From Sphingobacteriales bacterium (lineage in GTDB: Bacteria; Bacteroidota; Bacteroidia; Chitinophagales; CAIOSU01), in the NCBI GenBank assembly GCA_027483645.1, contig JAIXUD010000010.1, positions 1 through 64,000 on the forward strand: a stretch of 64,000 bases of DNA. Reading direction: 5' to 3'. Below the pieces are notes generated by a model. That model searched no databases. It was not told where the DNA came from and was given only the letters and a program-made list of their open reading frames with translations. Position 1 is the first letter of the stretch; the number at the start of each line of letters is the position of its first letter. Positions 4,617 to 31,032 of this stretch are shown one piece after another. The translations under genes were made by a program, and so were the position numbers.

Positions 4617-7600
4617 ATGGCTCAATCGCAAAATGCTCAGGAACGGATTAACTTTGGCCGAATAACCAAACACTCCGATTACCCTGATTTGCTGGAGATC
4701 CAATTGAAATCGTTTAAGGACTTTTTCCAATTGGAAACTACAGCCGAAAACAGGAAGGAAGAAGGACTATATAATGTATTCCAAGAAAACTTCCCCATCA
4801 GCGACGCCCGGAACATTTTCGTTCTGGAGTTCTTAGACTACTTTATCGACCCTCCGCGCTACACCATGGAGGAATGTATTGATAGGGGGTTGACCTATGC
4901 ATTGCCGCTCAAAGCCAAATTGCGCCTGTCGTGTAACGATGAGGAGCACGTCGATTTTGAGACTATTGTACAAGACGTATTTCTTGGCAACATTCCATAC
5001 ATGACCCCTAAGGGTACGTTTATTGTAAACGGCGCTGAGAGGATTATTGTATCTCAATTGCACCGTTCACCTGGTGTGTTTTTTGGCCAAAGCTTTCACC
5101 CGAACGGAACCAAGATTTATTCCGCACGGGTAATCCCGTTTAAGGGAGCTTGGATGGAGTTTGCCACCGATATCAATAACGTGATGTATGCGTACATTGA
5201 CCGTAAGAAGAAATTCCCGGTTACCACGTTGCTGCGCGCTATCGGTTTCGATAATGATAAAGACATCCTGCAATTGTTTGGCCTAGCCGATGAGCTGAAG
5301 CTGAACAAGAAAAACGTAGCATCGTTGGTAGGCCGCAAGCTTGCCGCAAGGGTGTTGCGTAGCTGGGTTGAGGATTTTGTGGATGAGGATACCGGTGAGG
5401 TGGTTTCTATCGAGCGTAACGAAGTTATTCTTGAGCGCGATACCATCCTTAACGAGGACAACATCCGCCAGGTAATGGATATGGACATCGACACTGTTAT
5501 TCTTCAGAAAGAAGAGATGAGTGCAGATTACTCCATTATCTACAACACGTTGCAAAAAGATACTTCTAACTCTGAGTTGGAAGCCGTGCAACATATCTAC
5601 CGCCAATTACGTGGTAGCGATCCACCGGATGACGAGACCGCGCGTGGCATTATCGAGAAGTTGTTCTTCAGCGATAAACGTTACGATTTGGGCGAAGTTG
5701 GCCGCTACAAAATCAACAAGAAGCTATTGCTGAATACCTCTGATGAGACCAAGGTTCTAACGAAGCAGGATATCATCGAGATTGTTAAGTACCTAGTTCG
5801 CTTGATTAACAGCAAAGCCGAGGTGGATGATATTGACCACTTGAGCAACCGCCGTGTACGTACCGTTGGCGAGCAGTTGTTTGCCCAGTTCGGTGTTGGT
5901 TTGGCCCGTATGGCGCGTACCATCCGCGAACGTATGAACGTGCGTGATAATGAGGTGTTTACCCCAATCGATTTGATCAACGCGAGGACTTTGTCTTCAG
6001 TTATCAACTCGTTCTTCGGTACCAGCCAGTTGTCACAGTTCTTGGATCAAACCAATCCGCTATCGGAAATCACCCACAAGCGTCGTATATCGGCCCTAGG
6101 GCCAGGCGGTTTGAGCCGTGAGCGTGCAGGCTTCGAAGTAAGGGACGTACACTATAGCCACTACGGTCGCTTGTGTACCATCGAAACTCCGGAAGGCCCG
6201 AACATCGGTTTGATAAGCACCCTTTGCGTACACGCTAAAGTGAACCGCATGGGCTTTATCGAAACTCCTTACCGCCCGGTAACGAACGGTATTGTTGATG
6301 TTGATGGTAGCCGTTATTTGTCAGCGGAAGAGGAGGATACCAACGTTATCGCACAGGCAAACGCCATAATCGATAAAAAAGGTAACTTCCTAAGCGACCG
6401 TATTAAGAGCCGTCACCATGGTGACTTCCCTATATCTACCGCCACTGAGCTTCAGTTCATGGATATTTCCCCTAACCAAATTGTGGGTGTATCTGCTTCC
6501 TTGATTCCTTTCTTGGAGAATGATGATGCAAACAGGGCTTTGATGGGATCGAACATGCAACGCCAGGCAGTGCCGTTGTTGGTGCCACAAGCACCTATCG
6601 TGGGTACTGGTTTGGAGAAAGTTGTAGCTACCGACTCTCGCTTGCTACTGAACGCCGAGCGCGCTGGTGTGGTGGAGTATGTAGATGCCGATACCATTAT
6701 CGTGAAATATGACTCAACCCCTGAGGAGGATTTGTTGAGCTTTGTGAGCAGTACCAAAACGTACAACCTTACCAAGTTTAAGAAAACCAACCAAGGTACC
6801 TGTATCAACTTGAAACCTATTGTTCGTAAAGGACAGGCGGTTAAGTTTGGCCAGTTGCTTTGCGAAGGATATGCTACTGATAATGGCGAGTTGGCCCTTG
6901 GCCGTAACTTGAAAGTGGCGTTCATGCCATGGAAAGGTTACAACTTCGAGGATGCTATCGTACTTTCGGAGCGTGTGGTAAAAGAGGACATCTTTACTTC
7001 GGTGCATATTGAAGAGTATGAGCTGGAAGTGCGTGATACCAAGCTTGGCGAAGAGGAACTGACTCCAGATATCCCTAACGTAAGCGAAGACGCAACCAAA
7101 GACCTTGATGAGCACGGTATTATCCGTATCGGTGCCCACATTAAGGAAGGCGATATCCTTATCGGTAAAATTACCCCTAAGGGCGAAACCGACCCAACAC
7201 CTGAGGAGAAGCTTTTGAGAGCTATCTTCGGTGACAAGGCCGGCGACGTAAAAGACGCAAGCTTGAAAGCACCTCCGAGCACCAAAGGCGTAGTTATCGA
7301 CAAGAAACTATTTGCCCGTGCCAAGAAGGACAAAACAGCTAAAACCCGTGAAAAGGTACAGTTGGATAAGCTGGAAGGCGAGCACAAGAAAGCTAAAGAA
7401 GCGGTAATTGATACCCTTGTTGACAAACTTTCGAAAGTGCTTAAGGATAAATCTTCTGCAGGCGTGATAAACGTTTATAAAGAGGAAGTGGTGCCTAAAG
7501 GCGTGAAATACAGCCAAAAACTGTTGAAAGACCTTGATTACGATAACATCGACTTCAACAACTGGACGAAGGACGAAGATGTGAATAGCGACGTTAAAGC

Positions 7601-22831: not shown

Positions 22832-22945
22832 AGGATTGCAGATCAAGCTGTGCTAGCACACTCCCGATGGGTTTTAACAATTGTGTGGAATGTTGTTAGG
22901 CTGTTTTACGTTATAATGGCTATATTCAAATTTTATTTTCGGGCC

Positions 22946-23179
22946 ATGACAACATTAACCGTTAAAGTAACAGACCCTAAGTTTGCAGAAATGCTGGAAA
23001 AGATGCTGCGCTCCATGGAGTTTGTGGATGCTGTGGAGGTTTCTGAAGACAATTATCAACTTACCGATGGTGAGATGATGATGTTGAAAGAACGTAGGGA
23101 AGAATATCGTAAAAACCCTAGCCAAACCCGCAGTTGGGACGAAGTTCAAAAAGAACTGAAGCAGCGATATGAGTTATAG
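22946..23179 (+). CDS. Type II antitoxin (putative addiction-module component, TIGR02574-like)
   Basis: C-terminal LTDGEMMMLKERREEYRKNPSQTRSWDEVQKELKQRY motif typical of this antitoxin family. Overlaps the toxin gene by 11 nt. Start chosen at the internal ATG. Confidence 0.6.
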   Translation: MTTLTVKVTDPKFAEMLEKMLRSMEFVDAVEVSEDNYQLTDGEMMMLKERREEYRKNPSQTRSWDEVQKELKQRYEL

Positions 23180-23465
23180 TATAAGGACCATTAGCAAGGC
23201 TGAGCAAGATATCGCCTCTGCTATTGAATGGTATCTGGAAATTAGCAAAGACTTGGCTATTCGCTTTAATCAAGAATTAGATGAGATCTTTTCTAAGCTA
23301 TTGGCTTTTCCAGAGGCTTACCCTATTGTATTCTTAGATATGCGAATGTATTTGATGAAGACTTATCCTTACAAAATTTTGTATGTGATAGATGGATCGG
23401 AAATAATTATCCATGCCGTTGTTCACTACAAGATGCACCCGAATAGTTGGCAAAGAAATAGATAA
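23169..23465 (+). CDS. Type II toxin, ParE/RelE superfamily
   Basis: 98 aa, small basic protein, with YRILY-like and IIIHAVVH segments. Gene overlap with the upstream antitoxin. Confidence 0.6.
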   Translation: MSYSIRTISKAEQDIASAIEWYLEISKDLAIRFNQELDEIFSKLLAFPEAYPIVFLDMRMYLMKTYPYKILYVIDGSEIIIHAVVHYKMHPNSWQRNR

Positions 23466-23550
23466 CAACCATCCATACTTATTTGCTCGTTTTTTGAACT
23501 ACCACGCTCCCTTTGCGTTTATGTGTAAGTACATTCAAATTCGGGCATTA

Positions 23551-23583
23551 CAACTCGTAACCCGCAACCCGTAACTCGCAACC
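23551..23583. repeat. CGTAACC/CGCAACC heptad repeat copy
   Basis: caactcgtaacccgcaacccgtaactcgcaacc immediately upstream of the ATPase gene. Confidence 0.5.
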
Positions 23584-23588
23584 ATCAC

Positions 23589-25055
23589 ATGACCCAACCC
23601 CAAAACCTCGGCCAATTAAAAGCCTCCGGATATACCCCTAAAAGCATCAAACAAGAAATACGCGATAACCTGGTGGCGCGCATGAAGGCCAGCAAGCCCA
23701 TGTTTGCCGGCATTTTGGGTTACGACCAAACCGTGATACCTGATGTGCAGCGCGCCATCCTCTCTCGCCACAACATGATATTGCTGGGCCTGCGCGGGCA
23801 AGCGAAAACGCGCATAGCCCGCCTAATGGTGGACCTTTTGGACGAGTGGGTGCCCGTACTGGAAGGTAGCGAACTGAACGAAGACCCACTGCTGCCCATC
23901 ACCAAGCAGAGCTATGATAAAATAGCCGAACTAGGCGACAAAACCCCCATCACCTGGCTGCACCGCAACGATAGGTATGCCGAAAAACTGGCCACACCCG
24001 ATGTATCGGTAGCGGATTTGATTGGCGATGTGGACCCAATTAAGGCGGCCAACCTGCGCTTGAGCTATGCCGACGAAAGGGTGATACACTTCGGCTTGGT
24101 ACCGCGCAGCAACCGTTGCATCTTTGTTATCAACGAGTTGCCCGATTTGCAAGCACGTATACAAGTATCGCTGTTCAATATTTTGCAAGAGGGCGATGTA
24201 CAGATACGCGGTTTCAAACTGCGCCTGCCGCTGGATATCCAGTTTGTATTTACCGCCAACCCCGAGGATTACACCAATCGTGGTTCGATTGTAACGCCGC
24301 TAAAAGACCGTATTCAAAGCCAGATATTGACCCACTACCCTAAGGATATTGAAATATCAAAGTCCATTACCTTGCAAGAAGCCGCCATTACCAAAGAGCA
24401 GAAGGCAACGGTAGGGTATAGCGATTTGGCTCTGACCATGAACGAACAGATTGCCGTTGAAGCTCGTGGCAGTGAGTTTGTGGATGCGAAGAGTGGCGTA
24501 AGCGCCCGCTTGACTATCTCTGCTTTCGAAAACCTGTTTAGTGCTGCCGAGCGCCGCGCCATCATTAATGGGGAGGATAAAACCTTCATCCGCATGGGCG
24601 ACTTCTGGGGTATCATCCCCGCCATTACGGGTAAGATAGAGTTGGTTTATGAAGGTGAGCAAGAGGGCCCATACATAGTAGCACAAAACCTTTTGGGCAA
24701 ATCCATCCGTACGCTGTTTGCCCAGCTCTTCCCGAATCCGGAGAAGTTGCGCAAAAAGAAGGATGCCAACCCATACCAAGAAATCATTGATTGGTTCAAC
24801 ATTAATTCGCTCGACATCCTCAACGAGGTAAAGGACAAGGACTACGCCCACCGCCTATTGGCCGTGGACGGTTTGGACGACCTCGTTAAAAAATATCACC
24901 CAGCGCTAAAAGGCCCCGAGAAGCTATTTTACATGGAGTTTGTGCTGCACGGCCTAGCCGAATATAGCCTCCTCAACAAGCACCAACTAGAAACCGGCGT
25001 GCGGTTTAAAGATTTGCTAGGGGCAATGTTTGATATGAGCGGGGGTGAAAACTAG
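23589..25055 (+). CDS. AAA+ ATPase, Mg-chelatase ChlI-like / sigma-54-interaction-domain-like
   Basis: 488 aa; degenerate Walker A (LGLRGQAKT) and Walker B (CIFVINELPD). The family assignment is by resemblance only. Confidence 0.45.
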   Translation: MTQPQNLGQLKASGYTPKSIKQEIRDNLVARMKASKPMFAGILGYDQTVIPDVQRAILSRHNMILLGLRGQAKTRIARLMVDLLDEWVPVLEGSELNEDPLLPITKQSYDKIAELGDKTPITWLHRNDRYAEKLATPDVSVADLIGDVDPIKAANLRLSYADERVIHFGLVPRSNRCIFVINELPDLQARIQVSLFNILQEGDVQIRGFKLRLPLDIQFVFTANPEDYTNRGSIVTPLKDRIQSQILTHYPKDIEISKSITLQEAAITKEQKATVGYSDLALTMNEQIAVEARGSEFVDAKSGVSARLTISAFENLFSAAERRAIINGEDKTFIRMGDFWGIIPAITGKIELVYEGEQEGPYIVAQNLLGKSIRTLFAQLFPNPEKLRKKKDANPYQEIIDWFNINSLDILNEVKDKDYAHRLLAVDGLDDLVKKYHPALKGPEKLFYMEFVLHGLAEYSLLNKHQLETGVRFKDLLGAMFDMSGGEN

Positions 25056-25066
25056 ACACAAGATTT

Positions 25067-25117
25067 GAGACACAAGACACAACACTTTTTTTGCAGCTAT
25101 CTTGTGTCTTGTGTCTC
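25067..25117. terminator. Bidirectional hairpin between convergent genes (GACACAAGACAC repeat family)
   Basis: gagacacaagacacaa ... ttgtgtcttgtgtctc form a perfect 16-bp stem; the right arm overlaps the WYL-gene stop codon. Confidence 0.6.
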
Positions 25118-26123
25118 AACCCTGATACTGCTCCAGCGCCTTCATTAGCCGGTATTTAATAGACCGCGCCAAACGCGAAGGCTTCAACACCTTTACATTA
25201 TCACCAAAGCCCAGTATCTCGCGCTCGAGCTCAAAGTTGTGTTTTACCTGGATGCAGATGGTAGTGCCTGCTTCGGTTTTCGCTACAATTTCTTGGGTGG
25301 GGTGTATCGGTTTGGTGAGTACGTAGGGTGCATGGGCTGGATCAACAAGCAGGTGTACTTCCAGCACGTCGCTGCGGCTATCAGTTACCCCAATTAAATG
25401 CTTAAAATAGGTTTGCGTATCGAATAGCTCGTTCTCCATATAAGGCACAGAAGCTTTTTCTATCCCCTGTATACGGTCAAGCGCTAGGTTGAGCAGTTGA
25501 TTTCGGTGGTTGGGTGTGCCCAAAAGAAACCAGCGGTTGCGATACTGTTTTAATAGGTATGGGTGGAAAACAATATCGCCCGCCTGCCGCGCCTTGAAAC
25601 TTTGGTAAGTAATAGTAAGCGGTTGTTTATCGATAATAGCATGATACAGCACATCCAAGTGCTCCAACCCACGCAGGTCTTCGTTCTTTTCAAAATCGAT
25701 AACCGGTGTAGTGTGCGATTTGGAGGTATAAATCTGGTCTTCCAGCTTGCTCACCATCTCACTTACTCCGTTAAAGTGCGAAAAGCCTTTAAACTGTTTC
25801 AGTATATCCACCACACCATTCAGCATACCCAGGTCTTGGTCGGTAAGCGGTATGTTGCTTATGCTGTAATCGGGGTCTTCGTAAGTGTAATACTTCTTGT
25901 CGACTACAATAATAGGCGCTTTGTAGCCCAGCTTTTCGCTGCGCATCATCTGTATATCCATCTGCACGCTGCGGCGGCTGATGCCTTTATCAATTCCTTC
26001 GTACTCGTACAAGGTATCGCTACAGGCATCTATCAAATCCTCCAAAGTCCACTTACGGTAACGGTTTTGCAGGCATTTATCAATGGTTCGGTATCGGATG
26101 AGCGCATTCCTATTTACAGGCAT
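25116..26123 (-). CDS. WYL-domain transcriptional regulator (wHTH + WYL)
   Basis: N-terminus MPVNRNALIRYRTIDKCLQNRYRKWTLEDLIDACSD is the characteristic HTH of WYL regulators; about 335 aa. Start placed at the internal Met because the 40-aa upstream extension is non-conserved. Confidence 0.7.
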   Translation of the reverse strand: MPVNRNALIRYRTIDKCLQNRYRKWTLEDLIDACSDTLYEYEGIDKGISRRSVQMDIQMMRSEKLGYKAPIIVVDKKYYTYEDPDYSISNIPLTDQDLGMLNGVVDILKQFKGFSHFNGVSEMVSKLEDQIYTSKSHTTPVIDFEKNEDLRGLEHLDVLYHAIIDKQPLTITYQSFKARQAGDIVFHPYLLKQYRNRWFLLGTPNHRNQLLNLALDRIQGIEKASVPYMENELFDTQTYFKHLIGVTDSRSDVLEVHLLVDPAHAPYVLTKPIHPTQEIVAKTEAGTTICIQVKHNFELEREILGFGDNVKVLKPSRLARSIKYRLMKALEQYQG

Positions 26124-26159
26124 TTCAAACTTTTTTTGAAAAATAGTAAAAATATTTTT

Positions 26160-26198
26160 CACTGCGCAAAAAGACTGCGCACTAGCATGTAAACTTTG
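26160..26198 (+). promoter_or_regulatory. Operator-promoter motif copy 1 (ACTGCGCA-N6-CTGCGCA-N11-ACTTTG)
   Basis: cACTGCGCAaaaagaCTGCGCActagcatgtaaACTTTG; same architecture as copies 2 and 3. ACTTTG fits the Bacteroidetes -7 TAnnTTTG element. Confidence 0.6.
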
Positions 26199-26226
26199 CA
26201 TCGTTAATAAGAAAAAACACATCGTT

Positions 26227-26373
26227 ATGTCATCATTTATCAAACATCAGTTGGACGGTAATAAGAAGCAGCAAGGTAACTTGGGTATAGCCTATATAGG
26301 CAGCCTCGGCATGCCGGGACTGCGCCCCGACCAAAGCAGTGAGACAAAACGAGATTGTAGCCGGAAGGTATAG
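26227..26373 (+). CDS. Small ORF (48 aa) or sRNA driven by motif copy 1
   Basis: ATG 29 nt after TTTG with an A-rich leader; ORF MSSFIKHQLDGNKKQQGNLGIAYIGSLGMPGLRPDQSSETKRDCSRKV; followed by a strong terminator. Coding status is uncertain. Confidence 0.3.
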   Translation: MSSFIKHQLDGNKKQQGNLGIAYIGSLGMPGLRPDQSSETKRDCSRKV

Positions 26374-26400
26374 CATCATAATTACACCGTAGTTATATGT

Positions 26401-26434
26401 AAGCCCTGGCCATCTCGCCGGGGCTTTTCTTTTG
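26401..26434 (+). terminator. Rho-independent terminator (plus strand)
   Basis: aagccctggc-catctc-gccggggctt 10-bp stem, then ttcttttg. Confidence 0.75.
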
Positions 26435-26479
26435 CATGAGATTTTGCAATCTCAAGTCCCACACAAGTTTTATTCAACC

Positions 26480-26589
26480 GTATTCGTAGCTCAAGTGTTA
26501 GAGCCACCCACTTTTAATGGGTGAGTTATAGGTTCGAACGGCGAAGCCCTCACTGAGCTTTTTGCGAAGTAGTCCTATCGGGTACACCA
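26480..26589 (+). ncRNA. tRNA-like gene (Lys-like, anticodon TTT) with a 34-nt insertion in the T-loop and an encoded CCA
   Basis: Acceptor gtattcg/cgggtac (two G-U pairs), D-arm gctc-aagtgtta-gagc, anticodon arm accca-cttttaa-tgggt, T-stem atagg...cctat. The T-loop reads ttcgaac and is followed by the insert ggcgaagccctcactgagctttttgcgaagtagt. The 3' end is ACCA. Confidence 0.55.
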
Positions 26590-26674
26590 ATATGGGCATT
26601 GCCTTAGGGTGGGCTATGCCCAAGCTACCCGCCATCGGCTTTAGCGTGCCGATGGCGGTGGCACCAAGAATTAA

Positions 26675-26746
26675 CTGGAGGGATAACGGTGGTTGTTTAC
26701 TCGCTTTGGAAGCGAGTGGTCGCAGGTTCAAATCCTGCCCTCCAGA
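26675..26746 (+). tRNA. tRNA-Pro (anticodon TGG)
   Basis: C1-G72 acceptor ctggagg/cctccag, anticodon arm ctcgc-tttggaa-gcgag, T-arm gcagg-ttcaaat-cctgc. Confidence 0.75.
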
Positions 26747-26924
26747 CAAAAACTCCTAACCAACAAGTTGAGGAGGAAAGAGCTTGCTTGTGGCACCACT
26801 GGCGCTAGTGGTTGGTGGTGTGCAAACGGGAGTGGTTGAAGCCCACGGTTCCGACACTAAGCAGGAACAACGTTCGAAAAAGCCCATTTGACGGCCAACG
26901 GGCAAGCTCTTTCAAAGCATAACA

Positions 26925-26996
26925 GGAACCGTAGTTCAGCGGTAGAATCCCCGACTGTCTATCGGGTGGTCACGGGTTCGAATCCCGTCGGTTCCG
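26925..26996 (+). tRNA. tRNA-Asp (anticodon GTC)
   Basis: ggaaccg/cggttcc acceptor, anticodon arm cccga-ctgtcta-tcggg, T-arm acggg-ttcgaat-cccgt. Confidence 0.85.
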
Positions 26997-27000
26997 CTTT

Positions 27001-27096
27001 AGGCCTGTAGCCCAACGGCAGAGGCACCAGATTTAGGATCTGGACAGTGTGGGTTCGAACGGCGAAGCCCTCGTGCCAACACTCCCACCAGGCCCA
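27001..27096 (+). ncRNA. tRNA-like gene (anticodon TAG, class-I shape) with a 23-nt T-loop insertion
   Basis: Acceptor aggcctg/caggccc, anticodon arm ccaga-tttagga-tctgg, 5-nt variable loop, T-stem gtggg...cccac. The T-loop ttcgaac is followed by the insert ggcgaagccctcgtgccaacact, sharing its first 12 nt with the 26480 element. Confidence 0.55.
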
Positions 27097-27104
27097 CAAA
27101 TTAT

Positions 27105-27177
27105 TGGATGGTAGTTCAATTGGAAAGAGCATCGGGCTACGAACCCGAAGATGCAGGTTCGACTCCTGCCCATCCAA
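27105..27177 (+). tRNA. tRNA-Arg (anticodon ACG)
   Basis: Acceptor tggatgg/ccatcca, D-arm gttc-aattggaaa-gagc, anticodon arm tcggg-ctacgaa-cccga, T-arm gcagg-ttcgact-cctgc. Confidence 0.8.
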
Positions 27178-27188
27178 CTAACAAAAAG

Positions 27189-27403
27189 GGCGTCATTGCG
27201 AAGGCCTACTAGGTCTTGCAGTTCGAGCTAAACTTTAATGGCCTGAAGCAATCCCCCGACGAGGGGAGTGAATCGCATAGACCACTAAAGTGATGGTATT
27301 ATGTACTTGGTTCTGCGGTAAGCACAAACTATGCTCCGTAGCAGGGGATTGCTTCGTCGTTCAATTGCGCGAAAGGCGCAAATTGACTCCTCGCAATGAC
27401 GGC
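27189..27403 (+). ncRNA. Unclassified highly structured RNA candidate (about 215 nt) embedded in the tRNA array
   Basis: Closing helix gcgtcattgcgaagg / cctcgcaatgacggc. Nested helices gaagcaatcccc / ggggattgcttc and gcatag / ctatgc. Hairpins tcccccgacgagggga and ttgcgc-gaaag-gcgcaa. Confidence 0.45.
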
Positions 27404-27427
27404 TAGGGATTGGAGGTGATGTTAAAT

Positions 27428-27499
27428 TGTCTGGTGGTCTAATGGTTAGGATACTTCGTTTTGGAAGAAGTGGTGGTGGTTCGAATCCATCCCGGACAA
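27428..27499 (+). tRNA. tRNA-Gln (anticodon TTG)
   Basis: U1-A72 acceptor tgtctgg/ccggaca, anticodon loop ttTTGga, T-arm ggtgg-ttcgaat-ccatc, 4-nt variable loop. Confidence 0.7.
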
Positions 27500-27539
27500 C
27501 AAAAAATGAAAAAGTTGAAAATAAATTTTACTGCGCAAC

Positions 27540-27577
27540 AACGCTGCGCACCAGCGTTTCAACTTTGACATATTGTT
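27540..27577 (+). promoter_or_regulatory. Operator-promoter motif copy 2
   Basis: tACTGCGCAacaacgCTGCGCAccagcgtttcaACTTTG; spacing identical to copies 1 and 3. Confidence 0.6.
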
Positions 27578-27590
27578 ATTTGAAATCAAT

Positions 27591-27790
27591 ACTCCTCTAG
27601 CTTAAAAGGAAGAGCTGTGGTAAAAGTTACGGAACCATGTAGTGCCGGGATGATGCCTATAGAATCTCGCATTTTATAGGCTAGAATTTGCAGATGCACC
27701 GAAACACCGCTCTATAGAAGTGTAGTAGGGAAGCGCATTTATAGCCCGGCTGCCCTCGCGGGAGTCTCGGTTCGAGTCCGGGGAGGAGTG
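27591..27790 (+). ncRNA. 200-nt tRNA-like RNA with acceptor stem and canonical T-arm but about 150 nt replacing the anticodon region
   Basis: 5' actcctc pairs with 3' gaggagt. T-arm ctcgg-ttcgagt-ccggg sits directly before the 3' acceptor strand, and an agct...agct D-like stem follows the 5' strand. Internal helices include gcctata/tataggc and gccggg/cccggc. Begins about 15 nt after motif copy 2. Confidence 0.45.
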
Positions 27791-27796
27791 CGATTA

Positions 27797-27867
27797 GCAC
27801 CAGTAGCTTAATGGCAAAGCCCCTGTTTACCAAACAGGCAACGCAGGTTCGATTCCTGCTTGGTGCT
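27797..27867 (+). tRNA. tRNA with atypical anticodon ACC (Gly-like), 4-nt variable loop
   Basis: Acceptor gcaccag/ttggtgc, D-arm gctt-aatggca-aagc, anticodon arm cctgt-ttACCaa-acagg, T-arm gcagg-ttcgatt-cctgc. An A34 anticodon is unusual in bacteria outside Arg. Confidence 0.55.
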
Positions 27868-28005
27868 CAGTTAATGGTCGATTTGTGTAAGACCTGATCA
27901 GGGTTTCAAAATGGCCCGGTAGTGTTGCCACGCCCTGCGTTGCAATATGCTGCTTATCATTTTGGCATTAACTACCATGCTGTTTTTTGAAACAGTTTTG
28001 GAAGC

Positions 28006-28082
28006 GTGGGTTCGAATCCCACCATGCGTACACGCATGTGGCTCAGTGGTTAGAGCATGTTTTGGGCTCATAATCCAAACAT
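28006..28082 (+). ncRNA. Permuted-looking Met-like tRNA element: 3' half (T-arm + acceptor 3' strand) immediately upstream of the 5' half (acceptor 5' strand, D-arm, CAT anticodon arm)
   Basis: The 3' half gtggg-ttcgaat-cccac-catgcgt-a is followed 1 nt later by the 5' half acgcatg-tg-gctc-agtggtta-gagc. The anticodon stem is extended (atgttt/aaacat plus ggg/tcc) with loop CTCATAA, the Met/initiator-type loop. The two acceptor strands are exact complements. Confidence 0.4.
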
Positions 28083-28470
28083 TTCCCAAAAGTTGATCAC
28101 TTGTAAAAATGATCGCAGGAAAGTAGCGGCGGTGTCCTGGCCTTGCCATTATGGTTCGCCATAAAACCCAGGCAGTTGGACAGCGACCTGAAAAAGGAGG
28201 ATACCGTTGCAACAAGTTCGTTGGCTTTGCCCGGTAAAGGGATTTCTATAAATCGAGTATCAAAAGGGCCTCGAATTAACGAAACACCCACTGTGCAAAC
28301 CCGGCAAACACGTTCAGCTCAATCCGGCTTCCATTGTTGGAAGATGGGGCATCGGCGCTGCTTTCTATTTTTTTTGAAACGTATTTGAAAACCCGAAACG
28401 TGTAAGTCCCTCTCCCCTTGGGAGAGGCTAGGTGAGGGTTGAATTATAACAAGCATTAAAACACACAATT

Positions 28471-29574
28471 ATGTTCAACACAAGAATCAACGAAGGAACA
28501 GTAGGTATCGTTACCAAGTACGGCAACTATAACAGGATAGTATCGGCAGGTACTTTCTGGGCAATGTTCAATGAGCAGGTGGAAACCTACAACGTGGATA
28601 CGCTGTATGGCGCTTTCCCTAAGCTCGACATTATGCTGAAAGACGAGCGTTTCCGCGCCATGGTAGAAGTACTGGAAGTAAAGGATAACGAGATTGCCTT
28701 GCAGTTTGTAAACGGCAACTTTGTGAGCATACTGAAGCCAGGTCGGTACTTCTACTTTAAAGGCTACGCCAACATCAAGTTTGTGGTGGTAAACCTGGGC
28801 AAGGTAGAGATTACCGAAGGCATCGATATGGCGGTACTGTTAAGGTCGGAGGTGGCGCACTATATCCGCGCCTTCTCGGTGCTGCCTTACGAGGAAGGCC
28901 TGCTGTTTGTGGATGGTAAATTCCAAAGGAAGCTGACCAAGGGTACCTACTACTTCTGGAAGAACCCCATCACCATTGAGGTGTTGAAGGCGGATATGAG
29001 GCAGTTGCAAATGGAAATCTCCGGTCAGGAAATCTTGACCATGGATAAAGCCGCACTGCGTGTAAACTTCTATGCCCAATACCGAGTGGTGGATACCGAA
29101 GTGGCCTTGCTGAACAACAAAGACTTCGAGAAGCAATTGTACATACTGGTGCAGTTGGCCTTGAGGGAATTTGTGGGCACCAAAACCCTGGATGAGTTGC
29201 TGGAAAACAAAGACTCCGTGGGCCAGTTTGTAGCCGATGCGCTGAAAGGCAAAGCGGCCAAGCTGGGCGTAGAGATTGTGAACAGCGGCATCAGGGACGT
29301 GATACTGCCAGGTGAAGTGAAGGAGATTATGAACCAAGTATTGGTGGCCCAAAAACAGGCCCAGGCCAACACCATTACCCGTAGGGAGGAGACAGCTTCT
29401 ACTAGGAGCTTGTTGAACACCGCCAAACTGATGGAGGACAACGAAATGTTGTTCAAACTGAAGGAGATGGAGTACGTGGAGAAAATCGCTGCGAAAATAG
29501 GTGAGATTACCGTATCGGGCAATGGCCAGGTGTTGGACCAGTTGAGGGACATTTTTTCGGCGAAATCAAAATAA
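28471..29574 (+). CDS. SPFH/Band-7 (stomatin-prohibitin-like) domain protein
   Basis: 367 aa with an SPFH-like core and a C-terminal coiled region; the family call is from overall resemblance. Confidence 0.6.
   Translation: MFNTRINEGTVGIVTKYGNYNRIVSAGTFWAMFNEQVETYNVDTLYGAFPKLDIMLKDERFRAMVEVLEVKDNEIALQFVNGNFVSILKPGRYFYFKGYANIKFVVVNLGKVEITEGIDMAVLLRSEVAHYIRAFSVLPYEEGLLFVDGKFQRKLTKGTYYFWKNPITIEVLKADMRQLQMEISGQEILTMDKAALRVNFYAQYRVVDTEVALLNNKDFEKQLYILVQLALREFVGTKTLDELLENKDSVGQFVADALKGKAAKLGVEIVNSGIRDVILPGEVKEIMNQVLVAQKQAQANTITRREETASTRSLLNTAKLMEDNEMLFKLKEMEYVEKIAAKIGEITVSGNGQVLDQLRDIFSAKSK

Positions 29575-29643: not shown

Positions 29644-31032
<1,389 letters not shown>

Follow-up and report, generated by a model that had tools for sequence, protein, structure and literature searches.

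The window, a stretch of 64,000 nucleotides at the start of a contig from a Sphingobacteriales bacterium, contains an RtcB island in which an array of tRNAs and tRNA-like genes, a tRNA-like element, a gene for an SPFH/Band-7 protein and a gene for an RtcB-family RNA ligase follow one another on the same strand, and a regulator with WYL and WCX domains is transcribed divergently from them (Table 1). The RtcB gene, which the earlier note on this DNA had placed about 1.6 kb downstream of the element, is confirmed by Pfam at a distance of 1.57 kb and has 536 relatives in the genome collection. Among 80 related loci, the WYL regulator lies beside RtcB in 63 and comparable tRNA arrays are present in 41, and the neighbours in these loci include RlaP, a PrfH-like release factor and WYL, which are known parts of repair systems. 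No hydrophobic N-terminal segment is visible by eye in the SPFH protein, and a search of viral contigs for SPFH relatives finds none. Other members of the tRNA array carry insertions, and an ordinary-looking tRNA(UGG)-like gene lies near the element. Por_Secre_tail domains occur among the open reading frames of the window and, together with the RtcB relatives, point to Bacteroidota as the host group.

Table 1. Features of the RtcB island in the window, in order along the forward strand
Feature	Coordinates	Strand	Basis
Regulator with WYL and WCX domains, divergently transcribed	25116-26243	-	Pfam
tRNA and tRNA-like gene array, immediately upstream of the element	26472-27868	+	ARAGORN, Rfam
Hairpin CTGTTT-tttg-AAACAG	27980-27995	+	Alignment with orthologues
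Predicted closing stem, 5' strand TTTTGG (27996-28001), and linker AAGC	27996-28005	+	Minimum-energy and centroid folds
T arm GTGGG/TTCGAAT/CCCAC	28006-28022	+	Sequence; Rfam YrlA match; leave-one-out covariance model
Acceptor-like hairpin CATGCGT-AC-ACGCATG	28023-28038	+	Sequence and predicted fold
T8 G9	28039-28040	+	Sequence; YrlA match; covariance model
D arm GCTC/AGTGGTTA/GAGC, including A14, G15, G18, G19 and A21	28041-28056	+	Sequence; YrlA match; covariance model
Anticodon-like arm, stem of about 8 bp with one bulge, 7-nt loop CTCATAA (28067-28073)	28057-28081	+	Folds
Predicted closing stem, 3' strand CCAAAA	28086-28091	+	Minimum-energy and centroid folds
Hairpin GATCA-CTTGTAAAAA-TGATC	28095-28114	+	Stem covaries, loop sequence conserved
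Conserved structured domain of about 250 nt	28118-28366	+	RNAalifold; shared motifs
SPFH/Band-7 ('slipin') protein, 367 aa	28471-29574	+	Pfam Band_7, E 2e-32
RtcB-family RNA ligase, 460 aa	29650-31032	+	Pfam RtcB, E 3e-34

The element (28006-28081, plus strand) is permuted with respect to a tRNA: the T arm comes first and is followed by a closed acceptor-like hairpin, the D arm and finally the anticodon-like arm. The T arm, the acceptor strands, the D arm, the CTCATAA loop and the permuted order reported in the earlier note are all present in the sequence, and the tRNA-like features of the element lie far beyond what chance would produce. The acceptor strands CATGCGT (28023-28029) and ACGCATG (28032-28038) are separated by A and C at 28030-28031, and the only other CATGCGT between 26 and 31 kb is at 29898, inside the RtcB open reading frame, in agreement with the earlier statement that the strands have no other partner. 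Since a loop of 2 nt is too short to close a stem of 7 bp, the acceptor-like hairpin effectively has 5-6 bp with a loop of 4-6 nt. The anticodon-like stem spans 28058-28081, whereas the anticodon stem of a canonical tRNA has 5 bp. C28005 in the linker occupies the position of tRNA nucleotide 48. The element is predicted to fold into a circularly permuted cloverleaf with the T arm stacked on the closed acceptor-like hairpin, and in this predicted fold the chain enters and exits the cloverleaf through the variable-loop position.

The TTTTGG and CCAAAA flanks can pair, and the predicted stem would close the element at the variable-loop position. This closing stem was considered as a conserved helix; it is clear in the window, yet the flank pairing is weakly conserved in the closest orthologues and shows no covariation in the alignment with three of them (L083-L085), which weakens the idea. 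Farther upstream, the hairpin at 27980-27995 may be read, from the sequence alignment, as the remnant (CTGT/ACAG) of the closing stem of a lost first tRNA-like module. The orthologue alignment places a first module in L084, L085 and most relatives and its loss in the window and L083, and closing stems of first modules are visible in relatives.

ARAGORN and the Rfam tRNA model (RF00005) call no tRNA at 28006-28081, where the sequence lacks an uninterrupted cloverleaf with its 5' and 3' ends paired, and over the whole 64-kb window ARAGORN and Rfam at gathering thresholds report ordinary tRNAs only. A covariance model built from other genomes, without the window sequence, has its top match in the window at 27992-28092 (56.3 bits, E 5.8e-13), and all 21 of its pairs are standard there. 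The only Rfam family matching the element is YrlA, which aligns at 28005-28056 with model positions 30-81 (33.7 bits, E 5.9e-5). The same model gives 31.9-48.2 bits on the first modules of relatives, mostly over its full length; its Rfam gathering threshold is 69 bits, so that the window and the relatives score below it, and no YrlA match at this threshold is found in the 11 loci scanned. ARAGORN and Rfam find neither tmRNA features nor a significant tmRNA match at the element. With the window element alone as query, nhmmer gives only weak matches in the related loci, and the modules of related loci were located by a structural regular expression. The Rfam tRNA model returns chimeric tRNA calls that span modules in relatives. 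Annotation calls for caution, as tRNA finders overlook the modules or miscall chimeric tRNAs over them.

The module is continuous with a hairpin and a structured domain that are also conserved, and modules may themselves be chained two or three in tandem. The GATCA hairpin lies upstream of SPFH in 25 of 28 loci (23 of 25 by pattern match, and in L083-L085 by alignment) and was recognized by eye in divergent form in two more; it is followed by ACCA in most relatives inspected and by GCAGG in the window. A stem of about 20 bp, formed by 28118-28138 and 28346-28366, encloses the domain of about 250 nt, and a T-rich tract lies on the 3' side of this domain. RNAalifold of four close orthologues gives 94 pairs in the region of this domain, 24 of them with compensatory changes. 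Its motifs GCAGTTGGACAGCGACCTGAAAA (from 28172) and CTTCCATTGTTGGAAGATGG (from 28328) lie about 157 nt apart in 18 loci. The domain is also found in two other clades; sequence HMMs of it fail to cross between clades, and homology across clades is drawn from the shared motifs, the constant spacing and the covarying outer stem. No Rfam family matches the domain, and simple scans for promoters and terminators give counts no higher than in shuffled sequence.

The RNA is a fixed companion of the gene for the soluble-looking SPFH/Band-7 protein in an RtcB island with a WYL regulator and a tRNA array. The SPFH-bearing loci number 28, namely the window, 24 loci among the 80 RtcB loci, and L083-L085, which are closer orthologues reached through SPFH homologues; these homologues number roughly 7,800. 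One to three modules lie directly upstream of the SPFH gene in all 28. Covariance-model matches reach at least 63 bits in the window and in each of the 24 SPFH-bearing loci that belong to the 80, and the modules of L083-L085 score 51-58 bits. The module is absent from all 56 related RtcB loci in which no SPFH gene was found, and the weaker model matches in these 56 loci are junctions of neighbouring tRNAs. In agreement with a tie to SPFH, the RNA of Aquimarina stays beside SPFH though RtcB is 4-5 kb away.

Comparison of 27 modules shows that the predicted helices are maintained by paired changes. Counted on an alignment fitted to the model structure, and hence leaning towards that structure, 95.7% of cells are paired against 32-41% when the partners are slid, the covariation score is 0.605 against 0.07-0.09, and double (compensatory) changes occur in 19 of 21 base pairs. 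Compensatory changes affect all seven pairs of the acceptor-like helix, and the T stem covaries, as in GCGAG/CTCGT of L083. The T loop nucleotides T54 T55 C56 R57 A58 are invariant in the 27 modules and U8 is present in every one of them, and U33 and R37 are each found in 30 of 30 modules. The triplet at the anticodon position takes 12 different forms in these 30 modules and differs even among the closest orthologues, being CAU in the window, GAA in L083 and L084 and AAC in L085, the SPFH proteins of which are 88%, 87% and 74% identical to that of the window, respectively. The invariance of U8, T54 T55 C56 A58, U33 and R37 as opposed to the drifting triplet indicates that the shape of a tRNA is kept and decoding is not. 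The tRNA-Met or initiator identity proposed in the earlier note is not upheld by these triplets.

Among 52 modules, the acceptor hairpin has 5-7 bp with mostly 4-nt loops. In the closest orthologues it reads CATGC, a loop of 6-7 nt and GCATG, and the discriminator A noted earlier in the window is not conserved as such. NCCA follows the 3' acceptor strand in few of the 52 modules (2 by script, 3-4 by eye); ACCA directly 3' of this strand, followed by a longer loop, is found in L010, L049, L080 and L046. The encoded ACCA resembles a true tRNA 3' end and hints at processing by RNase P and CCA addition in some lineages. As a general rule, such processing was considered and is weakened by the census of acceptor loops. 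The short A/U-rich flanks of the junction lack conservation among the closest orthologues, and no bulge-helix-bulge is seen in the predicted junction fold of the window, where these flanks pair as a simple helix of 6-9 bp. The acceptor is normally a closed hairpin, the anticodon stem is too long and NCCA is rare, which speaks against the earlier idea of two halves that must be joined into a decoding tRNA.

These observations bear on several explanations of the element. A true circularly permuted tRNA gene would yield a charged tRNA-Met (or tRNA-Ile2) used in translation, after RNase P and 3' trimming had cut the acceptor loop, CCA had been added and the ends in the variable region had been either kept together by the closing stem or sealed by RtcB. 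Such a gene would be consistent with the full set of tRNA tertiary-interaction nucleotides, the CAU loop, the A after the 3' strand, the presence of RtcB in the same locus and the ACCA with a spacer between the acceptor strands in a few relatives, and RNase P cleaves the YrlA RNA of Mycobacterium smegmatis in vivo, where this RNA also acquires CCA (PMC4201824). However, the unconserved triplet, the long anticodon stem of the window, the 5-bp acceptor of the orthologues and the tetraloops without CCA of most modules, the unconserved flanks without a visible bulge-helix-bulge, and the chaining of modules and their fusion to the 250-nt domain make it very improbable. What stands of the permuted tRNA gene described in the earlier note is its topology, which is real, conserved and linked to RtcB; the decoding tRNA-Met is not supported. 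If RNase P were instead to nick the acceptor loop and CCA were added, a two-piece tRNA-like RNA would result, made of two fragments paired with each other, with a free and possibly chargeable CCA end, and bound by SPFH. The M. smegmatis precedent applies here as well, CATGCGT-A-C/ACGCATG would give a 7-bp stem with an A-C tail completed by the addition of CA, and ACCA is encoded in several relatives. On the other hand, complementarity in the closest orthologues is limited to 5 pairs and their loops are without the A-C logic, most modules have 4-nt loops on stems of 5-7 bp, and the YrlA RNA of Salmonella Typhimurium, with a 6-bp stem, is not cleaved (PMC4201824), so that this explanation of the window element is doubtful; it is a possibility that in some lineages modules are opened by RNase P, given CCA and become chargeable two-piece tRNAs. 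A pseudogene left by rearrangement of the tRNA array, through tandem duplication and subsequent deletions, would suit an element that ends a dynamic array, lacks the first module in the window and has array neighbours with insertions. Its occupation of the same position in 28 of 28 SPFH loci from several Bacteroidota families, the compensatory changes in every helix and the invariant tertiary nucleotides leave this origin scarcely credible, and the permuted order, being conserved in orthologous loci, refutes the rearranged pseudogene that the earlier note had offered as its alternative.

The place of the RNA relative to SPFH raises the possibility that it acts in cis, as the leader or a sensor of the SPFH(-RtcB) transcript, either bound by a protein or cut by tRNA-damaging nucleases. 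In the loci with an aligned region, the RNA sits on the same strand at a constant place roughly 100-250 nt upstream of the SPFH start, the 250-nt domain ends in a long stem and then a T-rich tract in the clade of the window, and damaged tRNAs are known to regulate RNA-repair operons (PMC7790460, PMC10159003). However, a canonical GC-rich terminator lies between the RNA and SPFH in two relatives (L075 and L042), which favours a separate RNA product, and the spacer to SPFH varies and accepts insertions, one of about 150 nt in L084. The long-range stem with its T tract lacks the compactness of an intrinsic terminator, the island already has a dedicated WYL regulator, and RNAs of the YrlA type are stable and trans-acting (PMC4201824). 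A leader is therefore unlikely, although it keeps some weight. It is also conceivable, though again unlikely and a little more so, that the RNA is a sacrificial tRNA bait in a repair island, the generic anticodon loops of which draw anticodon nucleases. The cleaved modules would stay folded through the closed acceptor end and an SPFH cage, and their 2',3'-cyclic-phosphate ends would either be sealed again by RtcB or act as the switching ligand of the WYL regulator, which in turn would turn on the tRNA array, SPFH and RtcB.

The reading that we favour, with moderate confidence, is that the element forms the head, a tRNA mimic, of an approximately 390-nt non-coding RNA (about 27980-28366) that is a partner of SPFH in trans and not a decoding tRNA. 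Every functional step of this model is one that we infer. The RNA would act in trans as a putative ribonucleoprotein (RNP) partner of an SPFH oligomer, as a Y RNA does with Ro60. Burroughs and Aravind reportedly proposed in 2016 that a predicted RNA, b7a-tRNA, is the SPFH counterpart of a Y RNA with Ro60. The RNA of the window may present a tRNA-shaped surface and a generic anticodon loop to tRNA-acting enzymes, and it could thereby be a tether or cofactor for the repair of cleaved tRNAs by RtcB, a decoy or competitive inhibitor of anticodon nucleases, or both. Neither ligation of two halves nor decoding would be needed.

tRNA-shaped Y RNAs beside RtcB are already known, and the window and its 27 relatives give the prediction of an SPFH/Band-7 tRNA-like RNA a testable anatomy, namely between one and three permuted cloverleaves whose anticodons drift, a hairpin of specific sequence, a conserved 250-nt domain unmatched in Rfam and a strict tie to an SPFH protein without an obvious membrane anchor. 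If the RNA binds SPFH, it would be part of a second RNP, independent of Ro, in which a tRNA mimic serves RNA repair or toxin defence in bacteria, and it would offer a compact system for probing what tRNA mimics do for RtcB.

In the two-piece tmRNA encoded by the permuted ssrA genes of some bacteria, the 3' portion of the acceptor is encoded before the 5' portion. This RNA is cut in two, receives alanine and contains the reading frame of a tag. It is a bacterial precedent for the permuted order of a tRNA-like gene, and the element is without tmRNA features. Permuted tRNA genes of Cyanidioschyzon merolae, some green algae and Thermofilum give rise to ordinary decoding tRNAs with fixed anticodons, the maturation of which involves a bulge-helix-bulge junction, a circularized intermediate and cuts by RNase P and tRNase Z (PMC3978253, PMC3218864). 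The element resembles them in having the 3' half directly upstream of the 5' half and in a likely origin from tandem tRNA copies, but its anticodon drifts, its acceptor loop is usually a tetraloop, no bulge-helix-bulge is seen and the host is a bacterium.

The closest structural likeness is to the YrlA Y RNAs, which lie adjacent to RtcB and have a tRNA-like domain made of a T arm, a closed acceptor hairpin and a D arm (Chen et al. 2014, PMC4201824; Wang et al. 2018, 10.1101/312249). This order defines that domain, and the remark in the earlier note that permuted tRNAs are not known in bacteria has to be withdrawn accordingly. YrlA (RF02553) and the element share the T arm, an acceptor-like hairpin that is closed and varies in length, the D arm and the nucleotides of tRNA tertiary interactions, and both lie beside RtcB in tRNA-rich surroundings on the same strand as the protein partner. 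The element differs in that its anticodon-like arm is closed and bears a canonical 7-nt loop (YrlA 'lacks the anticodon loop'; 10.1101/312249), in chains of up to three tandem modules, in the fused hairpin and 250-nt domain, and in having SPFH/Band-7 as the partner gene. Ro60/Rsr (TROVE), which belongs within about 4 kb on the same strand in the case of YrlA, is found in none of the 30 window open reading frames scanned, and TROVE is absent from 10 scanned neighbour families, all of which belong to the 13 that are most widespread in the 80 loci. For the Ro-binding motif GNCGAAN0-1G, no GNCGAANG is present between 24080 and 31165, and GNCGAAG occurs only in two other array members, at 26540 and 27061. 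The Ro-binding-like GGCGAAG was considered as a candidate; it is confined to insertions in these two array tRNAs and absent from the element. The design of the element is thus that of the YrlA tRNA-like domain with a closed anticodon-like arm added and without the Ro60-binding module.

YrlA sometimes adjoins Band-7 (10.1101/312249), and the system of Burroughs and Aravind (2016), as described in 10.1101/312249, combines Band-7 and RtcB with the predicted b7a-tRNA, which in the words of that text 'strongly resembles an authentic tRNA' and as of 2018 was a prediction without experimental validation. Set against this one-sentence description, the RNA here differs in being permuted, multi-module and about 400-520 nt long (about 390 nt in the window), and b7a-tRNA may correspond to the permuted RNA, to a chimeric reading across modules or to the tRNA(UGG)-like gene. 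The likeness lies in a tRNA-like non-coding RNA beside an RtcB-linked Band-7/SPFH gene, here in 28 of 28 SPFH loci, and to the extent of that description the setting of the element matches the SPFH/Band-7 and RtcB system with its predicted tRNA-like RNA (Burroughs and Aravind 2016, via 10.1101/312249).

When window 27940-28135 was read directly, all the sequence features were found (see the table) on which the earlier note had based its reading of 28006-28082 as a circularly permuted tRNA-Met element. Since CATGCGT recurs between 26 and 31 kb only within the RtcB open reading frame, the two acceptor-type strands can pair only with each other, as that note had claimed. RNA folding predicts a multi-branch junction, with a closing helix (TTTTGG, 27996-28001, and CCAAAA, 28086-28091) surrounding all four arms and an anticodon-like arm of about 8 bp plus a bulge, compared with the canonical 5 bp. 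ARAGORN and the Rfam tRNA model detect seven ordinary tRNAs across the window, five between 26675 and 27868, and call no tRNA at the position of the element. A permissive Rfam scan of 26200-28600 gave a match at 28005-28056 to YrlA, a bacterial Y RNA with a tRNA-like domain (33.7 bits, E 5.9e-5, threshold 69), and this match spans model positions 30-81, which are exactly the T arm, the closed acceptor hairpin and the D arm of YrlA. A later covariance model, trained on related loci alone without the window sequence, has its top match in the 64-kb window at 27992-28092 (56.3 bits, E 5.8e-13) with 21 of 21 pairs standard, and its runner-up matches are boundaries between adjoining array tRNAs.

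Features of the element and of the surrounding locus (window coordinates)
Feature	Position	Strand	Remark
WYL/WCX regulator	25116-26243	-	divergent; first in locus order
tRNA and tRNA-like gene array	26472-27868	same as element	after WYL/WCX regulator in locus order
T arm GTGGG-TTCGAAT-CCCAC	28006-28022	+	sequence reading
3' acceptor-type strand CATGCGT	28023-28029	+	sequence reading
A C between acceptor-type strands	28030-28031	+	sequence reading
Complementary strand ACGCATG	28032-28038	+	sequence reading
Standard D arm GCTC-AGTGGTTA-GAGC	28041-28056	+	sequence reading; preceded by T8 G9
Hairpin 7-nt loop CTCATAA	28067-28073	+	sequence reading
Hairpin GATCA-CTTGTAAAAA-TGATC	28095-28114		directly 3' of element; stem covaries, loop sequence conserved
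Structured domain, ~250 nt	28118-28366		closed by ~20-bp stem, 28118-28138 with 28346-28366
SPFH/Band-7 protein	28471-29574		after element in locus order
RtcB	29650-31032		after SPFH/Band-7 in locus order

A species-level genome collection contains 536 RtcB relatives, and the loci of the best 80 of the 536 (about 70% identity, all Bacteroidota) were retrieved. A divergent WYL gene is present in 63 of the 80 loci and an SPFH gene in 24; genes for a TPR protein, for RlaP nucleotidyltransferases and for a PrfH-like release factor also recur nearby, and there is no TROVE protein among the recurrent neighbours in the 80 loci. Both RlaP and PrfH belong to the known components of RtcB repair systems. 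Modules were searched with a structural pattern and then with a covariance model, R1. The linkage between the RNA and SPFH is strict: the window and every one of the 24 SPFH-bearing loci have permuted modules immediately upstream of SPFH, two in tandem in most SPFH-bearing loci and three in some. Matches to R1 of at least 63 bits are confined to these loci and the window, and the 56 loci with no detected SPFH gene give only matches of at most 60 bits, which are boundaries of adjacent tRNAs. In Aquimarina, the RNA still adjoins SPFH while RtcB is 4-5 kb off.

In an alignment of 27 modules, which was fitted to the model and so favours the modelled structure, standard pairs occupy 95.7% of cells compared with 32-41% after sliding the partners by 1-3 columns, both sides have changed in 19 of 21 pairs, and the covariation score is 0.605 compared with 0.07-0.09 in the slid versions. 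None of 500 shuffles matched the observed values. The acceptor hairpins are nearly wholly different between loci yet complementary (CATGCGT/ACGCATG, CAAGATC/GGTCTTG, CGAGACC/GGTTTCG, CTAGATT/AATCTAG and others). Judged from these alignments, the permuted cloverleaf is a selected structure, and selection on it rules out the rearranged pseudogene that the earlier note had offered as its alternative, against which the compensatory changes and the complementarity kept across loci both speak. The search for SPFH homologues returned more than 7,800 at E below 1e-40, and three contigs reached through them (L083, L084 and L085, with SPFH 88%, 87% and 74% identical), whose sequences were left out of covariance model building, all carry a permuted module directly upstream of SPFH; the orthologue comparison that had been proposed thus finds the permuted order kept. 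Their acceptor hairpin is recognisably the same as that of the window (CATGC...GCATG) but has 5 pairs and a 6-7 nt loop, and the T stem shows a compensatory change (GCGAG/CTCGT) among them. The 'anticodon' is GAA in L083 and L084 and AAC in L085, whereas it is CAU in the window, and the triplet takes 12 different values in 30 modules. In the same 30 modules, U33 and a purine at 37 are present in all and a pyrimidine at 32 in 29, and T54, T55, C56, A58 and U8 are invariant across modules. By these comparisons, selection acts on tRNA shape, not on decoding identity. They also show that the first module has been lost from the window and from L083 and kept in L084, L085 and the majority of relatives; of its closing stem, the hairpin CTGTTT-tttg-AAACAG at 27980-27995 appears to be the leftover.

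In total, the RNA measures about 390 nt in the window; with two or three modules it reaches about 450-520 nt. A simple pattern recovers the GATCA/TGATC-type hairpin ahead of SPFH in 23 of the first 25 loci, L083-L085 have it too, two more loci have divergent forms recognised by eye, and ACCA directly follows the hairpin on its 3' side in most inspected relatives. RNAalifold on four close orthologues predicts 94 pairs in the 250-nt domain, 24 of them with compensatory changes, and the domains of close orthologues are separated by indels of 1-2 nt, arguing against a coding region. The domain, for which the permissive scan of 26200-28600 gave no Rfam match, occurs also in two other clades with the same outer stem and many compensatory changes; the motifs GCAGT...ACCTTGAAA and TTTCCGT...GAAAGATGG are found in all clades, and their spacing is constant at about 157 nt in 18 loci. 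A canonical GC-rich terminator lies between the RNA and SPFH in two relatives (L075 and L042), suggesting a separate RNA product.

A cis-acting leader of SPFH is possible, in agreement with the constant position upstream of the gene, but both these terminators and the variability of the spacer speak against it. A true permuted tRNA-Met gene is contradicted by the drift of the triplet between orthologues, the long anticodon stem, the short and closed acceptor hairpins of orthologues, and the fusion of multiple modules to a large domain; of the original proposal, the permuted order stands and the Met identity falls. Nicking by RNase P followed by CCA addition, as in the YrlA of M. smegmatis, could occur in the few lineages with ACCA encoded inside a longer loop. 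As a general property it is opposed by the acceptor-like hairpins of 52 modules, which have 5-7 bp and mostly a 4-nt loop, with NCCA after the 3' acceptor strand in few of them (two by script, three or four by eye). The element is therefore most likely the tRNA-mimic head of an SPFH-associated non-coding RNA in an RtcB repair island, a reading drawn from its YrlA-like topology, the Band-7/RtcB context in the literature and the matches to the YrlA model. The RNA might bind the SPFH oligomer in the way that Ro60 is bound by Y RNA and, acting as cofactor, tether or decoy, might expose a surface resembling tRNA to RtcB or anticodon nucleases.

The window belongs to a Bacteroidota chromosome: it encodes T9SS sorting domains, and its relatives are Bacteroidota, chiefly Flavobacteriales. 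No TROVE/Ro60 domain is present in 30 scanned window ORFs, and no hydrophobic N-terminal segment was seen by eye in the SPFH/Band-7 protein. Upstream of the WYL gene (22850-25055) are genes for an AAA_5 (MoxR/dynein-like) ATPase (23589-25055), with no counterpart in the 80 related loci, and a ParE-family toxin (23169-23465), and also a small ORF. Several relatives (e.g. L001, L032, L045, L047, L078 and L079) have a second and distant paralogue of RtcB (27-29% identity) within a few kb. Flavo-1 RNA (RF01705) scores above threshold between SPFH and RtcB, mostly on the opposite strand, in L040 (5773-5844, -), L042, L063, L079, L023 and L024, and is absent from the 75-nt spacer of the window. In L083, SPFH and RtcB are separated by three inserted genes (4770-7158), one for a PRTase-CE protein, one small ORF and one for a reverse transcriptase (RVT_1), which look like a retron-like or defence-like set.

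Arrays of up to 16 tRNA genes lie beside RtcB in 41 of the 80 related loci. Their 'Leu(UAG)' tRNAs are only 74-76 nt, without a long variable arm, odd anticodons (Tyr-AUA, Asp-AUC) occur, and the arrays resemble a reserve or decoy tRNA set linked to repair genes. Their commonest member, which occurs also without SPFH, is tRNA(UGG)-like; this conserved gene (window 26675-26747, and 23 or more related loci) has an unusual D stem, carries A37 in place of G37, and may correspond to the Band-7-associated tRNA of earlier work. Two array tRNAs missed by ARAGORN, a Lys(UUU)-like one (26472-26590) and a short one with a UAG anticodon (27003-27098), have T-loop insertions of about 34 and 23 nt at the same position (after GGTTCG), both starting with AACGGCGAAGCCCTC, and their orthologues in L084 and L085 lack the insertion. 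The insert includes GGCGAAG, which fits the Ro-binding consensus GNCGAAG; none of the 80 related loci has this motif with the insert. The insertions may be introns, footprints or of another kind. Another conserved RNA, of about 195 nt (window 27593-27788; L022 11045-11243; L046 3791-3976), has tRNA-like ends and gave no Rfam match in the permissive scan of 26200-28600. It combines an acceptor stem of 7 bp and both D and T arms with a 5-bp stem whose loop is enlarged, and at the variable-region position it has a structured insertion of about 105 nt bearing the near-invariant blocks TAGAATTTGCAGA.GCACCGAAA and AGTAGGGAAGCGCATTT; three sequences give 16 compensatory pairs. Between tRNA-Arg and tRNA-Gln, a strongly folding element of about 215 nt (27186-27405, z -4.3) ends in a near-perfect inverted pair, CGTCATTGCGAAG / CCTCGCAATGACG; none of the 80 related loci contains it, and the corresponding interval in L084 and L085 is too short to hold it. 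It could be a miniature mobile element or other structured RNA. Shortly before the permuted element stands a well-scoring tRNA with anticodon ACC ('Gly'; window 27797-27868, L083 2804-2875, L085 3304-3375), conserved among close relatives; A34 is unusual in bacteria.

In YrlA, the tRNA-like domain, made up of T arm, closed acceptor-like stem of varying length and D arm, adopts a genuine L-shape (PMC4201824; 10.1101/312249). Salmonella has YrlA, Ro60 and RtcB in one operon. A decoy or competitive-inhibitor role has been proposed for YrlA (PMC7790460). Bacterial tRNA-mimic Y-like RNAs beside RtcB are a class already known, and, as far as Burroughs and Aravind (2016) is cited in 10.1101/312249, the association of SPFH/Band-7 with a tRNA-like RNA is already predicted: RtcB adjoins a Band-7 protein and a predicted 'band 7-associated tRNA' in other bacteria, and YrlA is occasionally adjacent to Band-7. 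The tRNA-like part of the element has the same topology as YrlA, and the first modules of relatives match the YrlA model with 32-48 bits, mostly over its full length. On three of four criteria for YrlA membership the element differs, scoring below the threshold and having neither a Ro60 neighbour nor a Ro-binding motif. Compared with YrlA and the band 7-associated tRNA as described, part of which difference Burroughs and Aravind (2016) may already cover, four features set the element apart: a full permuted cloverleaf with a canonical anticodon loop, modules in tandem, the conserved hairpin and the 250-nt domain.
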